From NCBI GenBank assembly GCA_048940445.1, contig JBHLON010000002.1:118149-182148 (forward strand): 64,000 nucleotides of DNA, given 5' to 3'. Position numbers and translations under genes: made by a program. Below are positions 28,162 through 46,724 of this stretch, piece by piece; positions within the stretch are counted from its first letter, which is position 1, and every line of letters begins with the position of its first letter. The notes beneath the pieces were generated by a model. That model made no database searches, was not told where the DNA came from, and worked only from the letters and a program-made list of their open reading frames with translations. The stretch comes from Promethearchaeota archaeon (GTDB lineage: Archaea; Asgardarchaeota; Lokiarchaeia; Sigyniarchaeales; SOKP01).

Positions 28162-29304
28162 TTGAAAATTTTAATAACAGGAGCATTTGGTAATGTGGGA
28201 TTAAGTACTTTAAGAGAATTAATTAAGAAAGATCATAACGTTAGAGTAATTGAAATAAAAAATAAAAAGAATAAGAAATTAGCAAAAGAATTTAAAAGTA
28301 AAGTTGAAATCATATGGGGAGACCTTAGAGACTATAATGATGTTGAAAAAGCTATAGCAGGACAAGATCTGGTAATCCATCTAGCAGCTATCATCCCTCC
28401 ATTAGCAGATCATAATCTTGAATTAGCAAGAGCCGTAAATGTTGGAGCAACTAAAAACATTTTAAATGCCATTAAAAAGCAAGACAAACAAATAAAACTA
28501 ATTTTTACCTCTTCAATCGCAGTATATGGTGATAGGAGAATGAATCCAATGATTAATGTTAAGGACCATCTAAATCCAAGTCTTGGAGACTTTTATGCTC
28601 TCACTAAGATACTAGCTGAAAAGGCTATTAGAGAATCTGGTATAACCTTTGCAATTTTTAGATTAACATATATCACCTCAATTAATAAACTTGACATGGA
28701 TCCTTTAATGTTTCATATGCCTTTGGATACAAGTATAGAAATTTGTGACACTAAAGATGTTGGTTTGGCATTATCAAATGCGGTTGATTGTAATCAAATA
28801 TGGGGTGAAACATTTCATATAGCCGGAGGGATGAGATGTAGAACTACTTATAGAGAATATCTTAATATGATGATGCAAATCTTTGGATTAGGAGAAAATT
28901 TTTTACCTGAACAAGCTTTTGCTAAGAAAGATTTCCACTGTGGTTATATGGATACAGAAAAGTCTCAAAGTCTTTTAAAATATCAAAATCATACACTGGA
29001 AGATTATTTTAATGAAGTGGTAGAAAAGTTTGGTGTTAAAAAACATTTACTAAAAATTTTTAAAAAAACAGTTAAATTTCACTTACTAAAAAGTTCAGAA
29101 CCATATCGCAGATTTAAATTCTTTAAGAGTAGATCAGGAGCTTTTACTGTATCCGAAAATAAGTTTATAAGAAAATTGCTCTCTACTAACTATGAGAAGA
29201 TTGATCTCCTTGAAACTAGAATTATTCAGTTAGAAAAATTAATTCATGAGACAATTCAAAATGATAAAAAAGCAAAATTATTTGCACAAATTGAAAATAT
29301 ATAA
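28162..29304 (+). CDS. Extended SDR, NAD-dependent epimerase/dehydratase
   Basis: ITGAFGNVG, HLAA, SSIAVYG, YALTK; divergent from the HTH_10 regulator. Confidence 0.9.
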   Translation: MKILITGAFGNVGLSTLRELIKKDHNVRVIEIKNKKNKKLAKEFKSKVEIIWGDLRDYNDVEKAIAGQDLVIHLAAIIPPLADHNLELARAVNVGATKNILNAIKKQDKQIKLIFTSSIAVYGDRRMNPMINVKDHLNPSLGDFYALTKILAEKAIRESGITFAIFRLTYITSINKLDMDPLMFHMPLDTSIEICDTKDVGLALSNAVDCNQIWGETFHIAGGMRCRTTYREYLNMMMQIFGLGENFLPEQAFAKKDFHCGYMDTEKSQSLLKYQNHTLEDYFNEVVEKFGVKKHLLKIFKKTVKFHLLKSSEPYRRFKFFKSRSGAFTVSENKFIRKLLSTNYEKIDLLETRIIQLEKLIHETIQNDKKAKLFAQIENI

Positions 29305-29351: not shown

Positions 29352-30029
29352 TTATATGAGTATATAAGCAGGATTATATGATGTAACTATTCTATAGAAA
29401 AAGTTTGTAATAAATACAGCTAATCCTAAAATCCCCACAACCATAATGTTTTTATCCTTGTATTTAATTCCATGAATTATCAATAGGACAAAACCATTTA
29501 ATCGAATGATAACCAAAGTAACAATTATAGGTAAATAAATTAAACTCAAAAAGGGGCTATAACCATAAAGAATGCTAATAATACTTAACGTATTTCCATT
29601 TAAAAAGATTATCCCAATTCCATAAGAAGTCATCCAAAGAATCCCTGCAATCATAAGAAGAGCATTGTACTCTTTCTTATTTCGCTTACCATAAATATAA
29701 AAAAAGACCCCATAGGCTATAAAAAATGGTAGAGTCAAGAGAAGACCTATAAAAATCATATAACTAATTATTATAAATTTCTCAAATCCCACCTCAAAAG
29801 AGCCCGAGATTGCCGGAAAAACCAAGGGTAATAAACTAAAAGTAAGAATTAAAATAGCTGAAACCCTTAATAAACTTGATGATTGTATCGCTTCTTTCCT
29901 ATACTTATGAGCTCTAAATAGAAAAATTGAAATAACAATAGCAAAATTAGCAGAGATTATCAATGGTATGGCAATATAAAGAAAAGAAAATAAATTGAGA
30001 TACTGAAGATAATTAAATGTAATCGTCAA
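29352..30029 (-). CDS. Hypothetical multi-TM membrane protein
   Basis: ~6 hydrophobic segments; TTG start. Confidence 0.7.
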   Translation of the reverse strand: MTITFNYLQYLNLFSFLYIAIPLIISANFAIVISIFLFRAHKYRKEAIQSSSLLRVSAILILTFSLLPLVFPAISGSFEVGFEKFIIISYMIFIGLLLTLPFFIAYGVFFYIYGKRNKKEYNALLMIAGILWMTSYGIGIIFLNGNTLSIISILYGYSPFLSLIYLPIIVTLVIIRLNGFVLLIIHGIKYKDKNIMVVGILGLAVFITNFFYRIVTSYNPAYILI

Positions 30030-30418
30030 TTAAAAGACCTTTTAAATTTTAAATATTTGTCTGGATTTAAACAATTTAAATATAAGAAAAATTGTATTAA
30101 AAGCTTTTTTATATATTAGTTAAATCCAATTATTTTTTAGTCTTATACTATTTAATTTCTCAATCAAATAACAAATGGTTTTCGAAATAGGATAAAACTA
30201 TCTATTTCATCAACTTAATTTCCAGATTTAATTTATAACGTTAAATAACAAATTATTTAAATAAATACAACATAAACATTAACATAATTATATAAAAAAT
30301 GAGCTTCTCGATATTTAATGTATTTTAAATATCGGATGTTTACCATTTTCAATATATAAAAAAGCTGAGTAAAGATATAGACATAATTGTTAATCAAGAG
30401 GTGGATGTGTAAGAAAAG

Positions 30419-32362
30419 ATGGAAAAATCTGATAATCAAAGAATTGGATACTATGCTTGTCAGTGAGGTATAAATATTCGTGGAAAAATTGATTGCAATA
30501 AGTTAGTGGAGTACGCTAAAGATTTAGATGGAGTTATCGTTGCTAAACAGCACAGTTTTCTTTGCACTGAGAGTGGTCAAAATGAAATTATTGGGGATAT
30601 AAAAGAAAAAAAATTAAATCGCATTGTAGTTTCTGCTTGAACTCCACGTACTCATGAACCAGTTTATAGAGGATCGATTGCAAAGACAGATTTAAATCCT
30701 TATTACTTTCAGATGGTAAATGTGCGTGAACATTGCTCTTGGTGTACAGAAAGTAATGAAGAGGCATTAGATAAAGCTAAAATCTTGGTAAAGAGTGGTA
30801 TCGAACGAGGAAAACTACTTGAAGTTGTACCCATTAGAACTGTGCCTGTAGAAAAAGCCACCCTGGTGGTGGGTGGAGGAATAGCAGGGATGAATGCGGC
30901 TCTGGATCTCGCCAATCAAGGAATTAAAGTGTATTTGGTTGATAAAAACACAACTATAGGAGGACGAATGGCGCAATTAGACAGAACATTTCCAACTGAT
31001 GACTGTGCGATATGAATCTGTGGACCTAAGATGCTTGAAGTAAATCGAAATGAAAATATTGAGATTCTTAGCTATTCAGAAGTGAAAAAAGTAGAAGGTT
31101 ATGTTGGTAATTATGAAATAACTGTTGAAAAGAAACCTCGTTATATAAATCCAGAAACTTGTAACGGATGTGGGGCTTGCGCAGAAGTATGTCCTACTTA
31201 TACCAATAATTACTTTGATGAATATCTAGGAGCAAGAAAAACAATTGATATTGCTTTTGGTCAAGCAGTCCCTTTTTTATATGATATTCATAGGGAGACT
31301 TGTGTAGAATGCTTTAATTGTGTCGATGCATGTGAGCTTGATGCAATAGATTTCAGCCAAATACCAGAAGAAGTCAAATTTAAAGTTGGAACTATTATCA
31401 TTGCTACTGGTTGGGATATATACGAGCCATTCGGAGAATATGGCTATGGAGAATATGCTAATGTGATCACACAATCTCAACTCGAAAGAATGCTAGCTCC
31501 AAATGGACCATTAGAAGGACACGTCCAGAGAATTTCTGATAATAAAAAACTAAAGGAGATAGTTTTCATTCAATGCGTCGGAAGTCGAGAAACCGAAAGA
31601 ACCTACTGTAGTGGTGTGTGTTGTATGCTTGCTTTAAAAAATGGAAAATTACTTAAAGAAGAATTTCCTGATGCTAATATTACTATCTGCTATATTGATA
31701 TAAGAACTAATGAGAAAGGTTTTGAAGAATATTACCAACGAGCTAAGGATTCTGATATTCGAATGATTCGTGGTAAAGTTGGTGAGATTACAGAAGATCC
31801 TGAGACTAAAAATGTTAAAATACGCGTTTATTCATCATTAACAGATGAAATAATTAATATTGATGCAGATTTAGTAGTTTTATCAACAGCAGCATTACCA
31901 TCTAAAGGGACTCAACAAATTGCCAAAGTTTTAAACTTAGATGTTGATAAGAATGGATTTCTGACCGAATCCCACTTTGGTTTGATGCCACAAGAAACAA
32001 AAACTAAAGGTATTTTTATAGCTGGATTTGCCCAAGGACCTAAAGACATTGCTTATTCAGTTTCACAAGCTAGAGCTGCTGCAAGTAAGGTTGCAGAACT
32101 GACTTCTACCGGTGAAATTGACTTAGAGTTAATTATAGCCGAGGTAGATAAAGATTCCTGTATTTCTTGTAGAAGATGCGAAAAAGAATGTCCAAAAGGT
32201 GCAATAAAGATCGTAGAAGATGAGGGTGCAATTGTTGATGAAATAAATTGTGATGGTTGCGGTATATGCGCTACTTGTTGCCCTACACGAGCAATTGATA
32301 TACGATATTATAGGGATCATCAGTTATATGCTGAAATTGAAGCTCTATTAGGAGGTGTTTAA
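30419..32362 (+). CDS. hdrA: Heterodisulfide reductase subunit A, selenoprotein with 3 Sec (codons 16, 74, 199); 647 aa
   Basis: One frame from ATG 30419. TGA at 30464 (YACQ-U-GINI vs LICHCGINI), 30638 (VSA-U-TPRTHE vs VASCTPRTHE) and 31013 (DCAI-U-ICGPKM vs DCSLCILAPKM in the in-window paralog); joins track ORFs 30713-31015 and 31031-32362. Confidence 0.95.
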
Positions 32363-32366
32363 ATAA

Positions 32367-32810
32367 ATGGACACAAATTTCAATATATTGATGTTTGCTT
32401 GTTTAAAATGAGGTTATGGTGCTGCAGATTTAGCAGGAGTGTCTCGATTAAAATATACACCGTCTGTTAAAATAGTAAAAATTAGGTGTACTGGACGGAT
32501 TGATGTGAAACATATCTTATATGCGATTAAGTCTGGAGCTGATGGTGTAATGATAGTTGGATGACGACCAGATGAATGTCAATTTAAGTACGGTAATTTT
32601 AAAGCACAAACTCATGTTGATTTGGCCAACAGAATATTAGAACGTAGAGGATTTGGAAACCAGAGAATAAATCAATATTGGTTAAGTAGCGCTGAATCAG
32701 AAAAATTAGTTAAAAGTGTTGAAGATGCAGTAGAAAAGGTACAACGTATGGGTAAAAACCCAATCCACGATATAAAATCTAAAAAAAAGAAAGCAAGCAT
32801 TGCCTCTTAG
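32367..32810 (+). CDS. mvhD: MvhD/VhuD [2Fe-2S] subunit, selenoprotein with 2 Sec (codons 15, 66); 147 aa
   Basis: ATG 32367 after GGAGG. TGA at 32409 (FACLK-U-GYGAADLAG vs FCCNWCSYAGADLAG) and 32562 (IVG-U-RPDEC vs ITGCHIGDC); RCTGRID. Confidence 0.95.
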
Positions 32811-32850
32811 AATGACTCTTATAAATAAATCTTCGTTATAAGATGACTAA
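32807..32850 (+). promoter_or_regulatory. Eukaryote-like (Loki-type) SECIS element
   Basis: UUAG/CUAA stem, AAU bulge, tandem G.A/A.G (AUGA..GA), perfect 8-bp UCUUAUAA/UUAUAAGA helix, apical loop containing AAA; begins at the mvhD stop. Confidence 0.85.
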
Positions 32851-32915
32851 CCATGTGTTGGTAAAGGAGGTATTAATAAAATTAAATTATTAAAAACTAA
32901 AATAATTGTAAAAGT

Positions 32916-34421
32916 ATGGTTCAGGTAGTGAATGAGAAATCATTCAGTGGAATTTCTCCAAAGAATTTAATGGAAGCAACTTATAAAGCATCTGAAAATT
33001 TCCAAATTAGAGCCTTTTATGAATCTAAAGAAGAAATCTTAAAGGCATCTAAATACTCAGAAAATGAATTTTATGAGATATACGATGCTATGCTAGATGC
33101 GGAGACGGAAAGAAAAATAGTATTAGAGGGGCTTAGAGGTAATAAACCTTTATTTTTAGAAGAAATAGTGAAAATTGTAACCGAATTTCCAGCAAATAAT
33201 GTTATTCGAGATATAATCTATTTAAAAGAGCAAGGATATATTGAGGAACAAATTGAAGTTAAAACTAAAGTAGTTATAAAAAAAATAAAAGGAGTAGAAA
33301 AAGAGGTAGAAGAAAAAGAATACTTTTATAGGTATCAAGTAAGAAAAGTACCTGATAAGTTCGTTGAAAATTATTTTGAACCTGTTTCAATAGTATTCGA
33401 ATCAGAAGTATGTTGTCAATGTGGTTGGTGTAGTAGCATTTGTCCCGTAAATGCAATAAACGTGACAGCAGATCTACTTGAAATTGATGAAGAAAAATGC
33501 ATGAAATGTGGTTTATGTTTTTCAGTCTGTCCTCGGACTTTTTCAATTGATCAAGTTTATAAAACAATCAAACAATTAGATAAAAATCTTAAGTGGTCAG
33601 CTAAAATCGGAGCTTATGTCAATGCCTATTCAGGAGCAACAACTAAAGAACAAATAAAAAAAGTAAAACAAGATGGAGGTGTCGTCACTTCACTATTAGA
33701 GTATCTGTTAGAGAACAATTTAGTAGATGCAATAATTGCTGTCAAACATTCTAAGGATTTATGGAGACCAGAACCAATAATAGTTGAAAAAGTTAGTGAT
33801 CTTTATAAAACGGGTGGTACTAAGTATGCTAATGCTGCTACATTATCAATTATTCAGATGGCTAAAAATTATGAAAGAATAGCAGTGGTGGGAGTTCCTT
33901 GTATGATGAAAGCAATTGAAAAAGGCACTCTTTTTCCAAGTGGATTGCCATTCTTTAAAAATATTAAATTTAGAATTGGATTATTTTGCATGGAATCCTT
34001 TCCCTATGATGGAGTAGTGCAACTAACGAAAGAAAAATTTGATAAGGATATTAACCAATTAACTAAAATGAATATTGATAGTGGGAAATTTATTATTAAT
34101 TTGAATTCTGGAGAAGAGTTAAAGGTAGATTTGAAAGAAGTCAAATCATATGCTCGCAATAATTGTCATTATTGTGAAGATTTAACCTCTGATTATGCTG
34201 ATATTTCGGTTGGCTCCATAGGTTCTCAAGGAGGTTGGTCTTCTGTAATTACACGTTCTAAGCAAGGAGATCAAATTTATCAAGGTGCAATAAGAGCTGG
34301 TTTAATAGAATCTCAAAGTTTAAAGGATGTTAAACCAGGCTTAGGTCTTTTGGAGCGAATTGCGGGAAGTAAAAGGAAAAATTGTAAGGTAATTGAACTT
34401 AAAAAGGAAAAAATATTATGA
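32916..34421 (+). CDS. FrhB/FdhB-family F420-binding subunit with N-terminal winged-helix-like domain
   Basis: CCQCGWC, CMKCGLC, QDGGVVT, GTKY, VGVPC, GLFCME, ADISVGS. Confidence 0.9.
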   Translation: MVQVVNEKSFSGISPKNLMEATYKASENFQIRAFYESKEEILKASKYSENEFYEIYDAMLDAETERKIVLEGLRGNKPLFLEEIVKIVTEFPANNVIRDIIYLKEQGYIEEQIEVKTKVVIKKIKGVEKEVEEKEYFYRYQVRKVPDKFVENYFEPVSIVFESEVCCQCGWCSSICPVNAINVTADLLEIDEEKCMKCGLCFSVCPRTFSIDQVYKTIKQLDKNLKWSAKIGAYVNAYSGATTKEQIKKVKQDGGVVTSLLEYLLENNLVDAIIAVKHSKDLWRPEPIIVEKVSDLYKTGGTKYANAATLSIIQMAKNYERIAVVGVPCMMKAIEKGTLFPSGLPFFKNIKFRIGLFCMESFPYDGVVQLTKEKFDKDINQLTKMNIDSGKFIINLNSGEELKVDLKEVKSYARNNCHYCEDLTSDYADISVGSIGSQGGWSSVITRSKQGDQIYQGAIRAGLIESQSLKDVKPGLGLLERIAGSKRKNCKVIELKKEKIL

Positions 34422-35578: not shown

Positions 35579-36805
35579 ATGTTCGGTGATACATTAGACT
35601 ATTTGGATAAAGTTTATGAATCTAATCTAAGGAATTTATTAAAAAAATGCTATCAATGTGGACGTTGTAGTGGTGTTTGTCAATTAAGCAAAGTTCAAAA
35701 ATTTCCACCAAGTAGGATTATACAGTTAATCTTAGAAGGATTTGAAGATAAAGTATTGAATTCAGGTGTTTTATGGGATTGCCTTACGTGTAATCAATGT
35801 TTAAAAGATTGTCCAGAGAAAATCAACTTTGCAGATATTGTTAGAATAGCAAGGTATAAAATGAGGCATGAAACAAACCAAAAATCTGATGAATTTATTG
35901 CTCATAAGGGGATTTACACTACAATAGCAGAAATGATGAGTAGACCATACATAACTCCAGAGAGATCGCTAGAGTGGATACCAAAAGATTGTAGTGTGTT
36001 AGAAAAAGGAGAACTCCTATATTATGTAGGATGTTTACCTTTTTATGAATATGAATTTGAAGATTCAAATAATATAGCTAAGTGTACATTACAACTTCTA
36101 TGCCAAATCGAACAAAAACCAATAGTAGTTTTAAAAGAGGAGAGTTGTTGTGGTCACGATATTTACTGGGGACAGGGGAAATTAAAGACATTTATTAAAT
36201 TAGCAAAGAAAAATTTGGAAAAATTTGAGAAAGCGGGAGTTTCTAAGATAGTTACTGCTTGTGCAGAATGTTATCGTACTCTAAAAATTGATTATTCTAA
36301 TATTTTTGAGAATTTCTCAACTAGGTTTGAAGTACAGCACATTATTGAATATATTTATGATAAATGGAAAGAAAATGAAATAGCTTTTAAGGGACCAAAC
36401 AAAAAAGATAAAGATACAATATTTACCTATCATGATCCTTGTAGGTTGAGTAGATTTTTACCCGAAGAGGATAATTTAACAAAAAAAGTTAGAGAAATTT
36501 TCGATGAATTAACAAGATTAGGATTTAATTTTAAGGAAATGAAACATAATAAAGAAAATTCTCTCTGTTGTGGAGTTAATTCCTGGATGAACTGCAATGA
36601 AAAATCTAAAGCACTTAGATATAAACGTATGTTAGAAGCAAAATCAGCAGCTCCTTTAATGGTGACTTCATGTCCGAAATGTGAGATTCATTTTAAATGT
36701 CTTCAGAACGATTTCGAAGATATAGAAGATATTAAAATCTTGGATTTTTCAGAGTTTATTATAAATCATGTTGAAATGATTGACAACTTGAATAGCGAGG
36801 AATAA
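35579..36805 (+). CDS. HdrD-like (HdrC+HdrB) Fe-S oxidoreductase with CCG domains
   Basis: CYQCGRC, CLTCNQC..CP, YYVGC, CCG x2, TYHDPC, SCPKC. Confidence 0.88.
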   Translation: MFGDTLDYLDKVYESNLRNLLKKCYQCGRCSGVCQLSKVQKFPPSRIIQLILEGFEDKVLNSGVLWDCLTCNQCLKDCPEKINFADIVRIARYKMRHETNQKSDEFIAHKGIYTTIAEMMSRPYITPERSLEWIPKDCSVLEKGELLYYVGCLPFYEYEFEDSNNIAKCTLQLLCQIEQKPIVVLKEESCCGHDIYWGQGKLKTFIKLAKKNLEKFEKAGVSKIVTACAECYRTLKIDYSNIFENFSTRFEVQHIIEYIYDKWKENEIAFKGPNKKDKDTIFTYHDPCRLSRFLPEEDNLTKKVREIFDELTRLGFNFKEMKHNKENSLCCGVNSWMNCNEKSKALRYKRMLEAKSAAPLMVTSCPKCEIHFKCLQNDFEDIEDIKILDFSEFIINHVEMIDNLNSEE

Positions 36806-36809
36806 CAGA

Positions 36810-39800
36810 ATGGAAGGATCTGTCTTAGTAATAGGTGGGGGTATCGCAGGAATTCAAACCTCATTAGATTTAACGGAATTGGGATTTAAAGTTTACTTAG
36901 TGGAAAGAAATCCTTCAATCGGAGGTCGTATGGCTCAACTTGATAAAACTTTTCCTACAAATGATTGTAGTCTTTGTATCTTAGCACCAAAGATGGTAGA
37001 AGTCTTTAGAAATCCAAACATAGAACTTATGACATATCATGAAGTATTAAATGTATCTGGAACAGTCGGAGACTTTAAAGTTAAGATTCTGAAAAAGCCA
37101 AGATATATAGATGAAACCAAATGTAAGGGTTGTGGCGATTGTTCTCAGCGTTGTCCGAAGATTGAAGTCCCGAATTTATTCGATATGAAATTAGGTAAAA
37201 GGAAATCTATATACATCCCTTTTCCACAAGCTGTACCTCCTATATATTTAATTGATCCTGAAATCTGTCTTAAATTAACTAAAGGAGTTTGTGGTGTATG
37301 TGAGAAAGTATGTAAAGCTGAAGCAATCGATTATGAACAACAGCCTCGGGAATTTGAGATTAAAGTAGGAGCAATTGTAGTTGCTACGGGATTTGATATG
37401 CCAGCAGAACAAATAACCTCCCGGTGGGGGTATCAATATAAAAATGTTATTAGTGCTTTAGAATATGAAAGAATATTATGTGCTTCAGGTCCATTTGGTG
37501 GTCATATATTACGGCCAAGTGATGAAACTGAGCCTGAGAGGATTGCTTTCATACAATGTGCTGGTTCACGAGATTTACATGAAAATATTCCTTACTGTTC
37601 AAGCGTTTGTTGTATGTACACCGCAAAGGAAGCTATTATCACCAAAGAACATTCAGAAAAAGCTAAATGTTTTGTGTTTAGGCACGATATAAGAGCTTAT
37701 GGTAAGAATTTCTATGAATTCACCCAGAGGGCACAAGATGAATATGGTGTACAATATTTTCAGACCAAAGTTAGTAAAGTCGAAGAAGATCCTAGCAATA
37801 ATGATTTAATCATTCACTATGAAGATTTAAAAACGGGAAAATTTAATAATTTCAGGAGCAATTTAGTAGTATTAGCAACACCATTAGTTCCATCAAAGGG
37901 TACAATTGAAATGGGAAAAATTTTAGGTGTTAAACTAGATAAATATAACTTCTTTAAGGAAAGCTCATATTTTAATAAATCACTCTCATCTAAAGAGGGA
38001 ATATTTTTAAGCGGTTTTTGTCAGGGACCAATGGATATTCCAGAAACTGTGGCAGATGCAAGTGGAGTAGCATCTCAAATTGCTTCACTATTAAATTCTG
38101 TTAAATTTAAAGCCATAAGGGAAAAAGTTAGAGAGAAATCTGAGATCGAGGTTAAAATTTCTGATGAACCTCGAATTGGGGTTCTAATATGTCATTGTGG
38201 AATAAATATTGGTAAATATATTGATGTTTCCGGTGTTGTTGAATATGTGAAAACATTACCGTTTGTAGCTCACTGTGAGTCTAATCTATACTCTTGTTCA
38301 AGTGATTCTCAAGCAAGAATTAAAGAAATGATTGAAGAATATAACTTAAATAGGTTTATTGTTGCTTCCTGTACACCCCGAACTCATGAAGCTCTATTCC
38401 AAGAAACTTGTCAAGAAGCAGGTTTGAATAAATATTTATTCGAAATGGTAAACATTCGAGATCAATGTTCTTGGGTTCATATGAATGAATATGAATTTGC
38501 TACTGAAAAAGCTAAAGATTTAATTAGAATGGCCATTGCAAAAGCACGTTTATTAAAACCTCTTAACGAAGCGCGATTAGATATAACTCCAACAGCCTTA
38601 ATAATTGGTGCTGGAGTTTCTGGTATGACTGCGGCTTTAAATATTTCTAAACAGGGATTTAAAGTTTTTTTAGTAGAGAAAGAAAAGAAGTTAGGCGGAA
38701 TTTTAAATAACTTAAATATTTTATATCCTGTTCATGAGGATGCATCAACGTTTTTAGATGCTATAAGTAGGGATGTAAAGAGCAGCAAAAATATTGAACT
38801 ATTTTTAGACTCCCAAATTAAAAGTATCAAAGGTTATATTGGTAATTATGATGTTTCAATCATCGATTCAAAACAGAAAGTCCATGAATTAAAGATTGGA
38901 ACGATTATCGTGGCAACTGGTGCCCAAGAATTAAAACCAAATGGGATTTTTCAATATAGCGAGAAAAATGAAAACGTAATAACTCAACTTGAATTAGAAG
39001 AAAAGTTGAAAAGTAAAGATTCATCATGGTTAGATGAAATTGAAAGAGTAACAGTTATTTTATGTGTAAACGCAAGACAAAAAGAAGGAATCACTTATTG
39101 TTCTAACATTTGTTGTGGGGTAAGTATTAAAAATCTAAGTCTATTAAAAGAATTAAAACCTGAGATTGAGATTGTTGTTCTTTATAGAGATCTACAAATG
39201 GCTAAAAAAGAATTTGAAGAATATTATCGTGAGCGTAGGAAGAACGCGATATTTCTTAGATATAGTTTAGAACGGTTGCCAAAAATCGATAAAATAAGTA
39301 ATAAACCAGAAAAATACAAAATAAGTTTATTTGATACTAATTTGCAAGAGGATCTTAGTTTTGATACAGATTTAGTCATACTAGCAACTCCTATGATTCC
39401 CAATAACAACCTAACAGAATTGGCGAAAATGCTCAAGGTGCCTTTAGATAAAAATGGATTTTTTTTAGAAGCACATGTAAAACTTCGACCTTTAGATTTT
39501 GCTACTGACGGAATATTTTTAAGTGGCTGTGCTCAATGGCCGAAAAATGTGCAAGATTCAATTGCTCAAGCAAATGGTGCTGCAGGAAGGGCTAGTAGAT
39601 TTTTAAGTGCAAAAACAATAACAACTTCTGGTTTAATAGCTGAAGTAAACCCAGACAGATGCATAGGATGTGGAAAATGTGAATCTGTTTGTCCATATAA
39701 CGCGATTGAGATTAAAGAAGCACTTATGGAGTTTGAGGAAGTCAGCATAAAAGTAGCAAAATCGTTTATAAATTCAGCTTTATGTAAAGGATGTGGTACA

Positions 39801-39893
39801 TGTGCGGCTACTTGCCCTAATGGTGCTATCTCAGTTAAACATTATGATTTTGATCAAATTTATGCAATGATCGAATCTTATCTACTAGAATAA
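36810..39893 (+). CDS. hdrA: Large two-module HdrA-like flavoprotein (all-Cys)
   Basis: GGGIAG, DKTFPTNDCSLC, CHCGINI, ASCTPRTHE, second FAD module, C-terminal ferredoxin. Confidence 0.93.
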   Translation: MEGSVLVIGGGIAGIQTSLDLTELGFKVYLVERNPSIGGRMAQLDKTFPTNDCSLCILAPKMVEVFRNPNIELMTYHEVLNVSGTVGDFKVKILKKPRYIDETKCKGCGDCSQRCPKIEVPNLFDMKLGKRKSIYIPFPQAVPPIYLIDPEICLKLTKGVCGVCEKVCKAEAIDYEQQPREFEIKVGAIVVATGFDMPAEQITSRWGYQYKNVISALEYERILCASGPFGGHILRPSDETEPERIAFIQCAGSRDLHENIPYCSSVCCMYTAKEAIITKEHSEKAKCFVFRHDIRAYGKNFYEFTQRAQDEYGVQYFQTKVSKVEEDPSNNDLIIHYEDLKTGKFNNFRSNLVVLATPLVPSKGTIEMGKILGVKLDKYNFFKESSYFNKSLSSKEGIFLSGFCQGPMDIPETVADASGVASQIASLLNSVKFKAIREKVREKSEIEVKISDEPRIGVLICHCGINIGKYIDVSGVVEYVKTLPFVAHCESNLYSCSSDSQARIKEMIEEYNLNRFIVASCTPRTHEALFQETCQEAGLNKYLFEMVNIRDQCSWVHMNEYEFATEKAKDLIRMAIAKARLLKPLNEARLDITPTALIIGAGVSGMTAALNISKQGFKVFLVEKEKKLGGILNNLNILYPVHEDASTFLDAISRDVKSSKNIELFLDSQIKSIKGYIGNYDVSIIDSKQKVHELKIGTIIVATGAQELKPNGIFQYSEKNENVITQLELEEKLKSKDSSWLDEIERVTVILCVNARQKEGITYCSNICCGVSIKNLSLLKELKPEIEIVVLYRDLQMAKKEFEEYYRERRKNAIFLRYSLERLPKIDKISNKPEKYKISLFDTNLQEDLSFDTDLVILATPMIPNNNLTELAKMLKVPLDKNGFFLEAHVKLRPLDFATDGIFLSGCAQWPKNVQDSIAQANGAAGRASRFLSAKTITTSGLIAEVNPDRCIGCGKCESVCPYNAIEIKEALMEFEEVSIKVAKSFINSALCKGCGTCAATCPNGAISVKHYDFDQIYAMIESYLLE

Positions 39894-39906
39894 AAGGAGA
39901 GCTTAT

Positions 39907-40350
39907 ATGCCAAGAACTACAACAAAAGTAAAACCTAAAGTTAAACAATTTAACCCTGAAATCTTGGTATTTTGTTGTAATTGGTGCAGTTATGCAGGAG
40001 CAGATTTAGCTGGAGTCTCAAGGTTCCAATACCCTCCCAATATGAGGATTGTAAGGGTTATGTGTTCTGGAAGAGTGGATCCTGCATTTGTCATAAAAGC
40101 TTTAAAAGAAGGTGCTGATGGTGTCTTAATAACAGGATGTCATATTGGAGATTGTCATTATATTTCAGGAAATGAGTATGCAAGAGAAAGATTCGGTAGG
40201 TTACATGAGGTTATTATAAAACAATTAGGGATAAATGAGAAAAGAGTTCGGTTGGAATGGGTCAGTGCTTCCGAAGGCAAAAGATTTGCTGAATTAATCA
40301 CAGAATTTACAAACGAGATTAAAGAGTTAGGACCTCTTAAAGTCTTATAA
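39907..40350 (+). CDS. mvhD: MvhD [2Fe-2S] subunit (Cys-type)
   Basis: FCCNWCSYAGADLAG, VMCSGRVD, GCHIGDCHY, WVSASEG. Confidence 0.95.
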   Translation: MPRTTTKVKPKVKQFNPEILVFCCNWCSYAGADLAGVSRFQYPPNMRIVRVMCSGRVDPAFVIKALKEGADGVLITGCHIGDCHYISGNEYARERFGRLHEVIIKQLGINEKRVRLEWVSASEGKRFAELITEFTNEIKELGPLKVL

Positions 40351-43889: not shown

Positions 43890-43955
43890 AAGATTTAAAT
43901 GTGTAAATGCCTCATTTTGATAGTAAAATGCTAATTTAAAGTTAAGGATATAAAA

Positions 43956-46724
43956 ATGGAAGGTTCAGTTTTAGTTATTGGGGGTGGTATTGCTGGAATT
44001 CAGACCTCGTTAGATTTAACTGAATTAGGATTTAAAGTCTTTTTAATCGAGAGAAAGCCATCGATTGGTGGACATATGGCTCAATTTGATAAATTATATC
44101 CAAATAATGACTGTAGCCTTTGTATATTAGCTCCAAAAATGGTTAGTGTTTATAGAAATCCTAATATAGAACTTTTCACCTTATCTGAAATAAAGGGAGT
44201 AGAGGGAGAAGTTGGCAACTTTAAAGTCACTATAAAAAAACATCCTCGGTACATAGATGAAACCCGATGTAAGGGTTGTGGTGATTGTTCTAAGCGTTGC
44301 CCAAAAATTGAAGTTCCAAATTTATTTGATTTGAACTTAGGTAAGAGGAAGTCAATATACATACCATTCCCCCAAGCAACTCCTCCTGTATACGTGATTG
44401 ACTCTGAATTGTGTTTATATTTAAATAGAGCTGTATGTGGTGTGTGTAAAAAGGTATGTAAAGGGGATGCGATCGATTTTGAACAAGAAGACTACGAAAT
44501 TGAATTAAAAGTTGGAGCTATTGTGGTAGCGACTGGATTTGATATGCTTGGTAAAACCTTACCTAAAAAATGGGGTTACCAATATAAGAATGTTGTTAAT
44601 GCCTTAGAGTATGAAAGAATTTTATCACCAACAGGACCTTTTGGCACTCAAATCCTAAGACCAAGCGATGAAATGGAACCTAAAAAAATTGCCTTTATTC
44701 AGTGTGCAGGTTCAGGTTATTTAAAAAAGAGCGTACATTATTGCTCCCGTGTTTGTTGCATGTATGTTGCTAAAAACGCCATATTAAGTAAAAGTTATTT
44801 AGAAAGTACTCAAATAACTATTTTTAGGCATAATATTCGAGTGTTTGGGAAAAATTTTTATGAGTATACAAAAGCTGCGCAAGATGAATATGGGATTAAT
44901 TATATTAACTCAGGAATTAATTTCATTCATGAAGACCCCGAAAATAATGATCTGGTCATTAATTATGATAATCTAAAAACAGGTGAAAAAAATTTATTAT
45001 TTCAAGCTAATCTTGTCGTATTAGCAGCTCCTTTAATCCCTTCCAATGGAACATCCGATTTGGCAGAGATTTTAGGGGTTGAACTTGACGATTATGGGTT
45101 TTTTAAGGAATCTTCTTACTTTAATAAATCTCTTTCTACTAGAGAGGGAATTTATCTTTGTGGATTCTGCAAAGAACCAATGAATATCTCTGAAACAGTC
45201 GCTCATGCTAGTGGAGTAGCTTCACAAGTTGCAACTTTATTACGTTCAGTGAGATACACTTTAATACATGAAAAGGAGATTGCCATTCGTCCAGAAGAAG
45301 AAATCATAAATATTACTCCAAGTGCATTAATAATTGGGGGAGGTATTTCTGGTATGACCGCAGCATTTAATATAAGTAGTCAGGGATTTAATGCAATTAT
45401 CGTTGAAAAAGAATCTCTATTGGGAGGGAATCTAAATCAACTAAACCAAATTTATCCAATAAAGCAAGATCCATTATCTATTTTAGATAAACTCAAAGAG
45501 GGGATACAAACTACAAGAAACATTGAAATATTCATAAATTCTACAGTTGAAAAAGTGAACGGATCTATAGGTAGTTATGAAATTATTATTAGAAGAGCAA
45601 ATTCTGAATTGATAAAGAAGACTGTGGGGGTTATAATTATTGCTACTGGAGGCCAAGAGTTCAAACCTTATGGGTTCTTTCAATATGGTAAAAAATATAA
45701 AAATGTTCTAACTCAGATGGATTTAGAACAGAAACTAAGGAGTGAAGATATAACATGGTTGAAGAATATAAATCATTTTACGACAATTATGTGTGTTAAT
45801 GCAAGGCAGAAAGGAGGATTCCCTTATTGTTCAAATATATGTTGTAGTAATACAATTAAAAATATCAATATCCTAAAGGAATTAAAACCTGAACTTGAAG
45901 CAGTTGTACTTTTTAGAGAACTTCATATGGCTAAAAAGGAATTTGAGGATTATGTAAGTAAAAGGAAGAAGTTAGCTAACTACTTAAAATACGATTTGCA
46001 GAATGTACCTGAAATCAATAACATTCAAGAAATACCTGAAAAGTTTGAAATTAAATTAAAAGATATTCAAAATACAAAAAAAAATATCAGTTTTAAAACT
46101 GATTTAGTAATCCTTTCAACCCCAATGATTCCTCCCGAAGGAATAGATAAACTAGCTAACATATTAAACGTGCCCTTAGATAAATATGGTTTCTTTATAG
46201 AGGCCCATAAAAAATTAAGACCTTTAGATTTCTCTTCTCAGGGAATTTTTGTTTGTGGATGTGCTCAATGGCCAAAAACAGTTCAAGATTCAATTTCGGA
46301 AGCCAATGGGGCGGCAGGAAGGGCAAGTAGATTTTTAAATATCGGAAAAATATCAACATCAAAATTAGAATTACTTTCTTTTTTGCTATCAATAGAATGT
46401 TTTTTCAAAGATATCAAAGTAAATGCAGAAAAATGCAATGGATGTGGAAGATGTGCAGAAGTATGTGAATTTAAAGCAATTTCTCTTAATCAATTAAATC
46501 AAGAATACGAGGATATTAGTATTGCTACAAAGAAAGCCTCAATAAATCCCGCAATATGTAAAGGATGTGGAAAATGTTCAGCAACATGTAGATTAAAAGC
46601 TATATATCCACGACATTATGATTTCAAACAAATTTCAGCGATATTTGACCCCTATTTTCTAGAAAGAGCTGAACCTGAACAGATAACTCCCAAAAGTAAA
46701 GAATTATCTTTGATAAATAGTTAA
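43956..46724 (+). CDS. hdrA: HdrA-like paralog lacking the internal CHCG/CTPRTHE domain
   Basis: Colinear with 36810-39893 except for a ~130-aa internal deletion. Confidence 0.9.
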   Translation: MEGSVLVIGGGIAGIQTSLDLTELGFKVFLIERKPSIGGHMAQFDKLYPNNDCSLCILAPKMVSVYRNPNIELFTLSEIKGVEGEVGNFKVTIKKHPRYIDETRCKGCGDCSKRCPKIEVPNLFDLNLGKRKSIYIPFPQATPPVYVIDSELCLYLNRAVCGVCKKVCKGDAIDFEQEDYEIELKVGAIVVATGFDMLGKTLPKKWGYQYKNVVNALEYERILSPTGPFGTQILRPSDEMEPKKIAFIQCAGSGYLKKSVHYCSRVCCMYVAKNAILSKSYLESTQITIFRHNIRVFGKNFYEYTKAAQDEYGINYINSGINFIHEDPENNDLVINYDNLKTGEKNLLFQANLVVLAAPLIPSNGTSDLAEILGVELDDYGFFKESSYFNKSLSTREGIYLCGFCKEPMNISETVAHASGVASQVATLLRSVRYTLIHEKEIAIRPEEEIINITPSALIIGGGISGMTAAFNISSQGFNAIIVEKESLLGGNLNQLNQIYPIKQDPLSILDKLKEGIQTTRNIEIFINSTVEKVNGSIGSYEIIIRRANSELIKKTVGVIIIATGGQEFKPYGFFQYGKKYKNVLTQMDLEQKLRSEDITWLKNINHFTTIMCVNARQKGGFPYCSNICCSNTIKNINILKELKPELEAVVLFRELHMAKKEFEDYVSKRKKLANYLKYDLQNVPEINNIQEIPEKFEIKLKDIQNTKKNISFKTDLVILSTPMIPPEGIDKLANILNVPLDKYGFFIEAHKKLRPLDFSSQGIFVCGCAQWPKTVQDSISEANGAAGRASRFLNIGKISTSKLELLSFLLSIECFFKDIKVNAEKCNGCGRCAEVCEFKAISLNQLNQEYEDISIATKKASINPAICKGCGKCSATCRLKAIYPRHYDFKQISAIFDPYFLERAEPEQITPKSKELSLINS

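Follow-up and report, generated by a model that had tools for sequence, protein, structure and literature searches.

The closest described relative of the element treated here is the lokiSECIS of Mariotti et al. 2016 (PMC4989117), which was found once in every HdrA–VhuD tandem, 3' of VhuD, shared by both genes and serving up to six UGA codons over about 2 kb. It was described as an AUGA, a 9-bp stem, an 11-nt loop and then a GA, located near or overlapping the stop codon, in which A predominates among the first five bases of the loop and an ultraconserved G, usually preceded by an A, closes it; HdrA was reported never to end in UGA (PMC4989117). Huang et al. 2024 (PMC11227280) extended the lokiSECIS idea to hundreds of Asgard genomes, where the element also bears the name type I eSECIS-like structure of Asgard archaea. 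The methanogen VhuD SECIS likewise displays AUGA and GAC/AAC around an extra stem, while methanogen HdrA contains one selenocysteine (Sec) residue (PMC4989117).

The hairpin at 32801-32872 of our window is the published lokiSECIS, and since a shared SECIS has been known since 2016 (PMC4989117), the locus constitutes another well-resolved example, not a discovery. The window is the whole stretch of 64,000 nt that was analysed (G000:C134:118149-182148), part of a 3.64-Mb Promethearchaeota MAG, 30% GC, that carries Sec machinery. All of the closest orthologous loci, at 85-94% protein identity, bear the label Promethearchaeota, which is the Lokiarchaeota lineage of the Asgard archaea. With a probability of roughly 0.85, we assign the element as an Asgard (Lokiarchaeota-type) SECIS and as the sole one for the hdrA–vhuD pair. 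Two covariance models were used, R1 for the full element (83 positions, 40 orthologues) and R2 for the core only (42 positions, 43 diverse elements), and the features of the locus are:

30419..32362, plus strand: hdrA, heterodisulfide reductase subunit A, 647 aa, ORF read with TGA as U
32367..32810, plus strand: vhuD/mvhD, FlpD family, 147 aa, Pfam PF02662 at E 1e-42
32801..32872, plus strand: whole SECIS unit, read as a three-way junction (RNAfold MFE, R1 69 bits, P1 covariation, partner-permutation test)
32808..32849, plus strand: lokiSECIS core, geometry and motifs as in Mariotti 2016 (PMC4989117), R2 57.1 bits
32850..32862, plus strand: P3, small hairpin directly 3' of the core, ACCA (32850-53) with UGGU (32859-62), loop UGUGU
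32801-06(08) with 32865(67)-72, plus strand: outer helix P1, UGCCUCUU (32801-08) paired to AGGAGGUA (32865-72)

Between the TAA stop of hdrA (32360-62) and the ATG of vhuD (32367) lie 4 nt, and Pfam finds FAD/Fer4 domains in HdrA. Three UGAs are read as Sec in hdrA (30464-66, 30638-40 and 31013-15; codons 16, 74 and 199) and two in vhuD (32409-11 and 32562-64; codons 15 and 66), the first of the five being 2348 nt away from the AUGA of the element. Both the spacing of the genes and the five UGAs over about 2.3 kb agree with an earlier note on this DNA. Elsewhere in the same cluster, Cys-type hdrA-like and vhuD paralogues (window 36798-40332 and 43941-46640) lack a SECIS, and Cys occupies each of their five Sec positions; the domain order of their HdrA is rearranged.

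On its 5' side, the core reads UUAG (32807-10), A (32811), AUGA (32812-15) and C (32816), followed by the main stem of UCUUAUAA (32817-24) with UUAUAAGA (32836-43), the 11-nt apical loop AUAAAUCUUCG (32825-35), which begins AUAAA and ends in G, and on the 3' side U (32844), GA (32845-46) and CUAA (32847-50). From 32807 to 32850, these letters match base for base the kink-turn hairpin that the earlier note had drawn, including its placement of the vhuD stop codon, UAG 32808-10, in the lower (C) stem opposite CUA 32847-49. Above this stem follow the bulge AAU (32811-13), the tandem G.A formed by GA 32814-15 and GA 32845-46, and the C32816.U32844 mismatch, which is the first pair of the 9-position stem (32816-24 with 32836-44). 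The outer helix, which encloses the ACCA/UGGU hairpin, the main stem and the small hairpin itself are all part of the RNAfold minimum-free-energy structure. For the single sequence, the fold z-score is -1.8 (86 nt) or -0.65 (bare hairpin), which is unremarkable by itself, so that the case must rest on comparison, by which the element far exceeds chance.

Compared to the published lokiSECIS, the window element agrees in its AUGA, the 9-position stem, the 11-nt loop, the GA and the position at the vhuD stop, a geometry common to most of the related elements listed, with the AUGA invariant in 70 aligned elements. It also agrees in occurring once per hdrA–vhuD pair, 3' of a gene with UGA at Cys positions, in a HdrA with several Sec residues, in the absence of a UGA stop from hdrA and in a host with archaeal Sec machinery, whose tRNA-Sec is a candidate read by eye. 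It deviates in the loop, which starts AUAAA (four of five A) and not AAAAA, and which has C and not A before the terminal G. With the type I SECIS of eukaryotes (RF00031), the element shares its location 3' of the coding sequence, the presumed action at a distance, a non-Watson-Crick core of AUGA...GA and adenines left unpaired in the apical loop, while its stem above the core is shorter, it would serve two cistrons, and the Rfam SECIS_1 covariance model yields no match to E 10. The SECIS of Methanococcales and Methanopyrus is alike in its 3' untranslated location and in the families served (hdrA, vhuD), but the window element lacks both the GAA_A bulge and the GC-only 3-bp upper stem. With kink-turn and k-junction motifs (box C/D, Kt-7; Wang et al. 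2014, PMC4005666), it is compatible in sequence, with a G–C-closed canonical stem, a 3-nt bulge ending in U, and a tandem G.A followed by a non-Watson-Crick pair, beside a putative three-way junction. Judged by its sequence only, the core reads like a classical kink-turn.

R1 scored the element at 69 bits (E ~1e-17) and R2 at 57 bits (E ~1e-11), values which partly reflect the inclusion of the window sequence in both seed alignments, and no other strong match was found in the 64-kb window. With filters off, neither model found anything else above 14 bits over 29900-33100, and the 14-bit match in this range is the antisense palindrome of the element itself, so the covariance scan leaves one element at 32801-32872 and none in or upstream of hdrA, in accordance with the earlier note, in which no second element had been seen. 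The Rfam SECIS families gave no match to E 10 over 29900-33100 and none at gathering score in the whole window, in line with the published finding that the Loki type escapes standard SECIS tools (PMC4989117). Two weaker R1 matches, at 33007-33056 (12.7 bits) and, on the minus strand and without an AUGA, at 29167-29258 (12.3 bits), were judged to be chance.

These scans bear on the most serious alternative, in which the element serves vhuD only and the UGAs of hdrA are decoded through local structure in the coding region, a GAA_A-type SECIS or a trans-acting factor. Cross-cistron SECIS action is not known from experiment, and weak or novel structures could evade models trained on the known type. 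However, synonymous-codon identity in a codon alignment of 34 orthologues is flat along hdrA (0.53 +/- 0.05 in 15-codon windows), rising modestly at the two gene ends only, with no conserved block after any hdrA UGA, and the 4-nt gap leaves no room for a 3' UTR of hdrA. In 80 related loci, scanned with 3 kb on each side, all coding-strand R1 matches lie directly after vhuD and no element was found within 3 kb upstream. Combining R1 with a pattern scan, 68 of the 69 Sec-type loci with downstream sequence have the element, one each and always after vhuD, so that the second element which a separate decoding of hdrA might employ is missing from about 68 loci; in the remaining Sec-type locus (L079), the element was not found.

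Stop codon usage points in the same direction, the counts coming from related loci and therefore not being independent. Among 66 loci, hdrA ends in TAA 46 times, in TAG 20 times and never in TGA, compared to a baseline of 15% TGA for long ORFs of the genome, as is expected if a downstream element acts on hdrA. For vhuD, the stop is supplied by the UGA within AUGA in 36/66 loci and by the lower-stem UAG in 20/66, the window included, and in the gene that comes next, TGA stops match the baseline frequency (8/37). This pattern would fit an element whose action on UGAs 5' of it sets in past some minimum distance. Altogether, a function restricted to vhuD appears unlikely to us. The preferred reading, one SECIS for both genes, assumes a common transcript, and with 3-22 nt between hdrA and vhuD in 64 of the 65 related loci with measurable spacing, separate transcripts are improbable and the two genes are presumably co-transcribed. 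Action of the element on hdrA across the cistron boundary we infer from the absence of an alternative. The proposal of the earlier note, a single AUGA/GA SECIS for five UGAs in two cistrons, is well supported by 68 of 69 loci and by the distribution over gene pairs in this genome, where the element follows 3/3 Sec-type and 0/10 Cys-type vhuD genes.

The same distribution speaks to a second alternative, in which the element mainly is a 3'-end or terminator structure or a generic L7Ae-binding regulatory element that accompanies selenoprotein genes without being a Sec signal. The gene order hdrA, vhuD, element, frhB-like, frhB-like, hdrB/C-like is kept in 41/41 orthologous loci. Of these, 33 have a possible archaeal terminator in the form of a T5+ run no more than 70 nt 3' of the element, in many cases right behind the outer helix. 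The core, moreover, resembles a box C/D-type kink-turn. Against this stand the lack of a T5+ run after the element in the window and in its closest relative (L016), the absence of the element behind all ten Cys-type paralogous pairs, its exclusive link to UGA genes, and the AUGA/GA/A-rich loop signature held in common with eukaryotic SECIS. Only nine elements occur in the 3.64-Mb genome, all behind small or known ORFs and most of them within tens of nt 3' of an ORF with in-frame UGA, with C28, which is truncated by the contig and shows no UGA, and C20 as doubtful cases. We thus regard a role without Sec decoding as very improbable. Within the SECIS reading, the element may lie inside a longer mRNA, as the earlier note had it, or may close a bicistronic transcript.

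In L017-L055, the T5+ run lies 20-50 nt after the element and is often GGGGUUUUU. The AGGAGG on the 3' strand of the outer helix was considered as ribosome binding site of the next gene and ruled out, being located 44 nt before the ATG at 32916; relatives have AGGGG, GGGAG or UUCGGA instead, covarying with the 5' strand. This next gene, frhB-like (32916-34421), is extended by about 150 aa at the N terminus, and its TGA stop overlaps the following start (ATGA at 34418), with no conservation of this UGA as Sec. Across G001-G030, the core model finds 3-9 sites in 18/18 genomes of the same genus and a match in only 1/12 genomes from other genera of the same order; the genera without a match either lack Sec or have a different SECIS.

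The genome contains three Sec-type and ten Cys-type hdrA–vhuD pairs, and each of the five UGAs has Cys opposite to it in all of the Cys-type paralogues (ten for vhuD). Codons 16, 74 and 199 of hdrA are UGA in 34/34 orthologues and both vhuD UGAs are UGA in 63/66 related loci, whereas codon 49 of hdrA is UGA in 29 and Cys in five of the 34 orthologues, the window being among the latter, and codons 298, 301 and 614 vary sporadically between UGA and Cys. The genome further encodes SepSecS (389 bits), a PSTK-like protein, SelD with one in-frame TGA, an EFSec-like GTPase (234 bits; C61:66168-67055) and a candidate tRNA-Sec:

G000:C61:61705-61858 (in L001), minus strand: candidate tRNA-Sec, read by eye

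In the candidate, the anticodon is UCA, the acceptor stem has 9 bp, the discriminator is G, CCA is encoded and insertions are present internally. SepSecS follows about 250 nt downstream of it, and the EFSec-like gene is about 4.3 kb away. Neither the Rfam tRNA-Sec model, which gave no confident match, nor ARAGORN reports a tRNA-Sec, since the insertions interrupt the candidate; as the Loki tRNA-Sec is described in the literature to carry an intron, failure of the Rfam model is expected. That the UGAs are not Sec codons, the genes being pseudogenes or UGA being reassigned, is hardly credible: some public gene callers do give Trp at homologous UGAs, but the UGAs occur at conserved Cys positions only, frameshifts and other stops are absent, UGA is a normal stop in 15% of the long ORFs and the full Sec pathway is present.

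Published lokiSECIS models comprise the core with its upper stem and loop and a lower stem that is short, to which the present comparison adds an outer helix and a 3' mini-hairpin. The earlier note had listed the basal helix, enclosing a small hairpin, as an alternative pairing. Both parts are indeed present, but they are not an alternative, since they coexist with the short UAG/CUA stem as a conserved architecture. In a model-fitted alignment of 76 matches, 92% of cells are paired, compared to 36-57% with slid partners, and the individual helices gave:

Outer helix P1: both-side changes in 6/6 pairs, 87.3% of cells paired (CCCCU/AGGGG, CUCCU/AGGAG, UCCGAA/UUCGGA, CCUCU/AGAGG)
Main stem: both-side changes in 8/8 pairs, 98.8% of cells paired
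3' hairpin P3: both-side changes in 2/3 pairs, 95.9% of cells paired (ACC...GGU, at constant distance 3' of the core)
Lower stem (3 bp): both-side changes in 2/3 pairs, 80.8% of cells paired

The closing G–C of the lower stem is invariant in 74/74 sequences, with its other pairs formed in 82% and 59%. P3 shows UA and CG exchanges, and its offset is equal in VhuD and non-VhuD elements. The hairpin is therefore conserved behind orthologous genes with compensatory changes, and its flanks are conserved as structure, not as sequence. Since an alignment fitted to a model leans towards that model, alignment-free permutation tests were added. For 98 distinct elements, the P1 score was 15.4 with true partners compared to 12.25 +/- 0.26 (maximum 13.2) with permuted ones, and for the 16 non-VhuD elements 12.75 compared to 10.87 +/- 0.70, a value reached by 0.4% of permutations. 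The P3 hairpin score of the 98 elements was 10.8, compared to 7.55 +/- 0.27 in shuffles. Constrained folding gave a mean z of about -1.5 and, as the main stem was not enforced, is only indicative. Indels kept MAFFT/RNAalifold by itself from recovering the outer helix.

With basal helix and small hairpin conserved and covarying, the unit would be a three-way junction. We lean slightly towards the view that the functional Asgard SECIS is such a junction of outer helix, kink-turn-like hairpin and ACC...GGU mini-hairpin 3' of the core, and not a simple hairpin, conserved behind VhuD as well as behind unrelated selenoprotein genes. A full-text literature search found no paper on a three-way junction for Asgard SECIS, and the outer helix and 3' mini-hairpin were not found in the main texts of the published models, so this architecture is probably undescribed so far. 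If real, the junction could be a platform for a SECIS-binding factor or could help the element to refold after each terminating ribosome has unwound it. The structure extended by P1 and P3 offers a better search model and a defined 72-nt RNA for finding the SECIS-binding protein.

We propose a model in which hdrA and vhuD are transcribed together and the RNA just 3' of the vhuD stop would fold into a kink-turn-like core on a three-way junction, the core consisting of the UAG/CUA stem, AAU bulge, tandem G.A and C.U pair, with an 8-bp stem and the A-rich 11-nt loop above. A protein would bind this core, candidates being an L7Ae/L30e-type protein or the EFSec complex itself, and bring EFSec with Sec-tRNA(Sec) to ribosomes paused at the five upstream UGAs, which lie 0.25 to 2.35 kb from the element and across the cistron boundary. 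The genome has just two genes of the L7Ae family (G000:C20:24960-25193 and C107:28957-29229), leaving no dedicated SBP2-like candidate, and the literature reports no SBP2 homologue for Asgard. A stop codon in or next to the element would still terminate, since a ribosome at this position would have unwound the element, and such unwinding could allow either the UGA of AUGA or the lower-stem UAG to close vhuD. Recoding of five UGAs in two cistrons over 2.3 kb by one 3' element would be unusual, and no better link between archaeal and eukaryotic selenocysteine decoding is available than its kink-turn-like core.

Several further genes of the genome are followed by the element. Two paralogues of about 155 aa, 44% identical (L010:504-962, G000:C44; L011:1002-1469, G000:C63), have an adjacent Sec-Sec (UU) at the same position and a lokiSECIS behind each. 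They gave no Pfam match, and the family is absent from the lists of archaeal selenoprotein families in the literature consulted. Most of the 120 Asgard homologues among the matches listed are annotated as hypothetical proteins of 114-118 aa; three aligned short homologues end exactly at TGA TGA, and three full-length entries read WW. On these grounds, the UU family is a candidate for a new selenoprotein family. The element G000:C20:853-894 (minus strand) lies behind a small zinc-ribbon-like ORF with several UGAs. Likewise, a lokiSECIS lies behind each of two small ORFs for single-pass membrane proteins, whose motifs are GEUPCSG and GEGUGC (L012:466-660, minus strand, G000:C80; G000:C27:8492-8690), at R2 scores of 54.8 and 32.6 bits.
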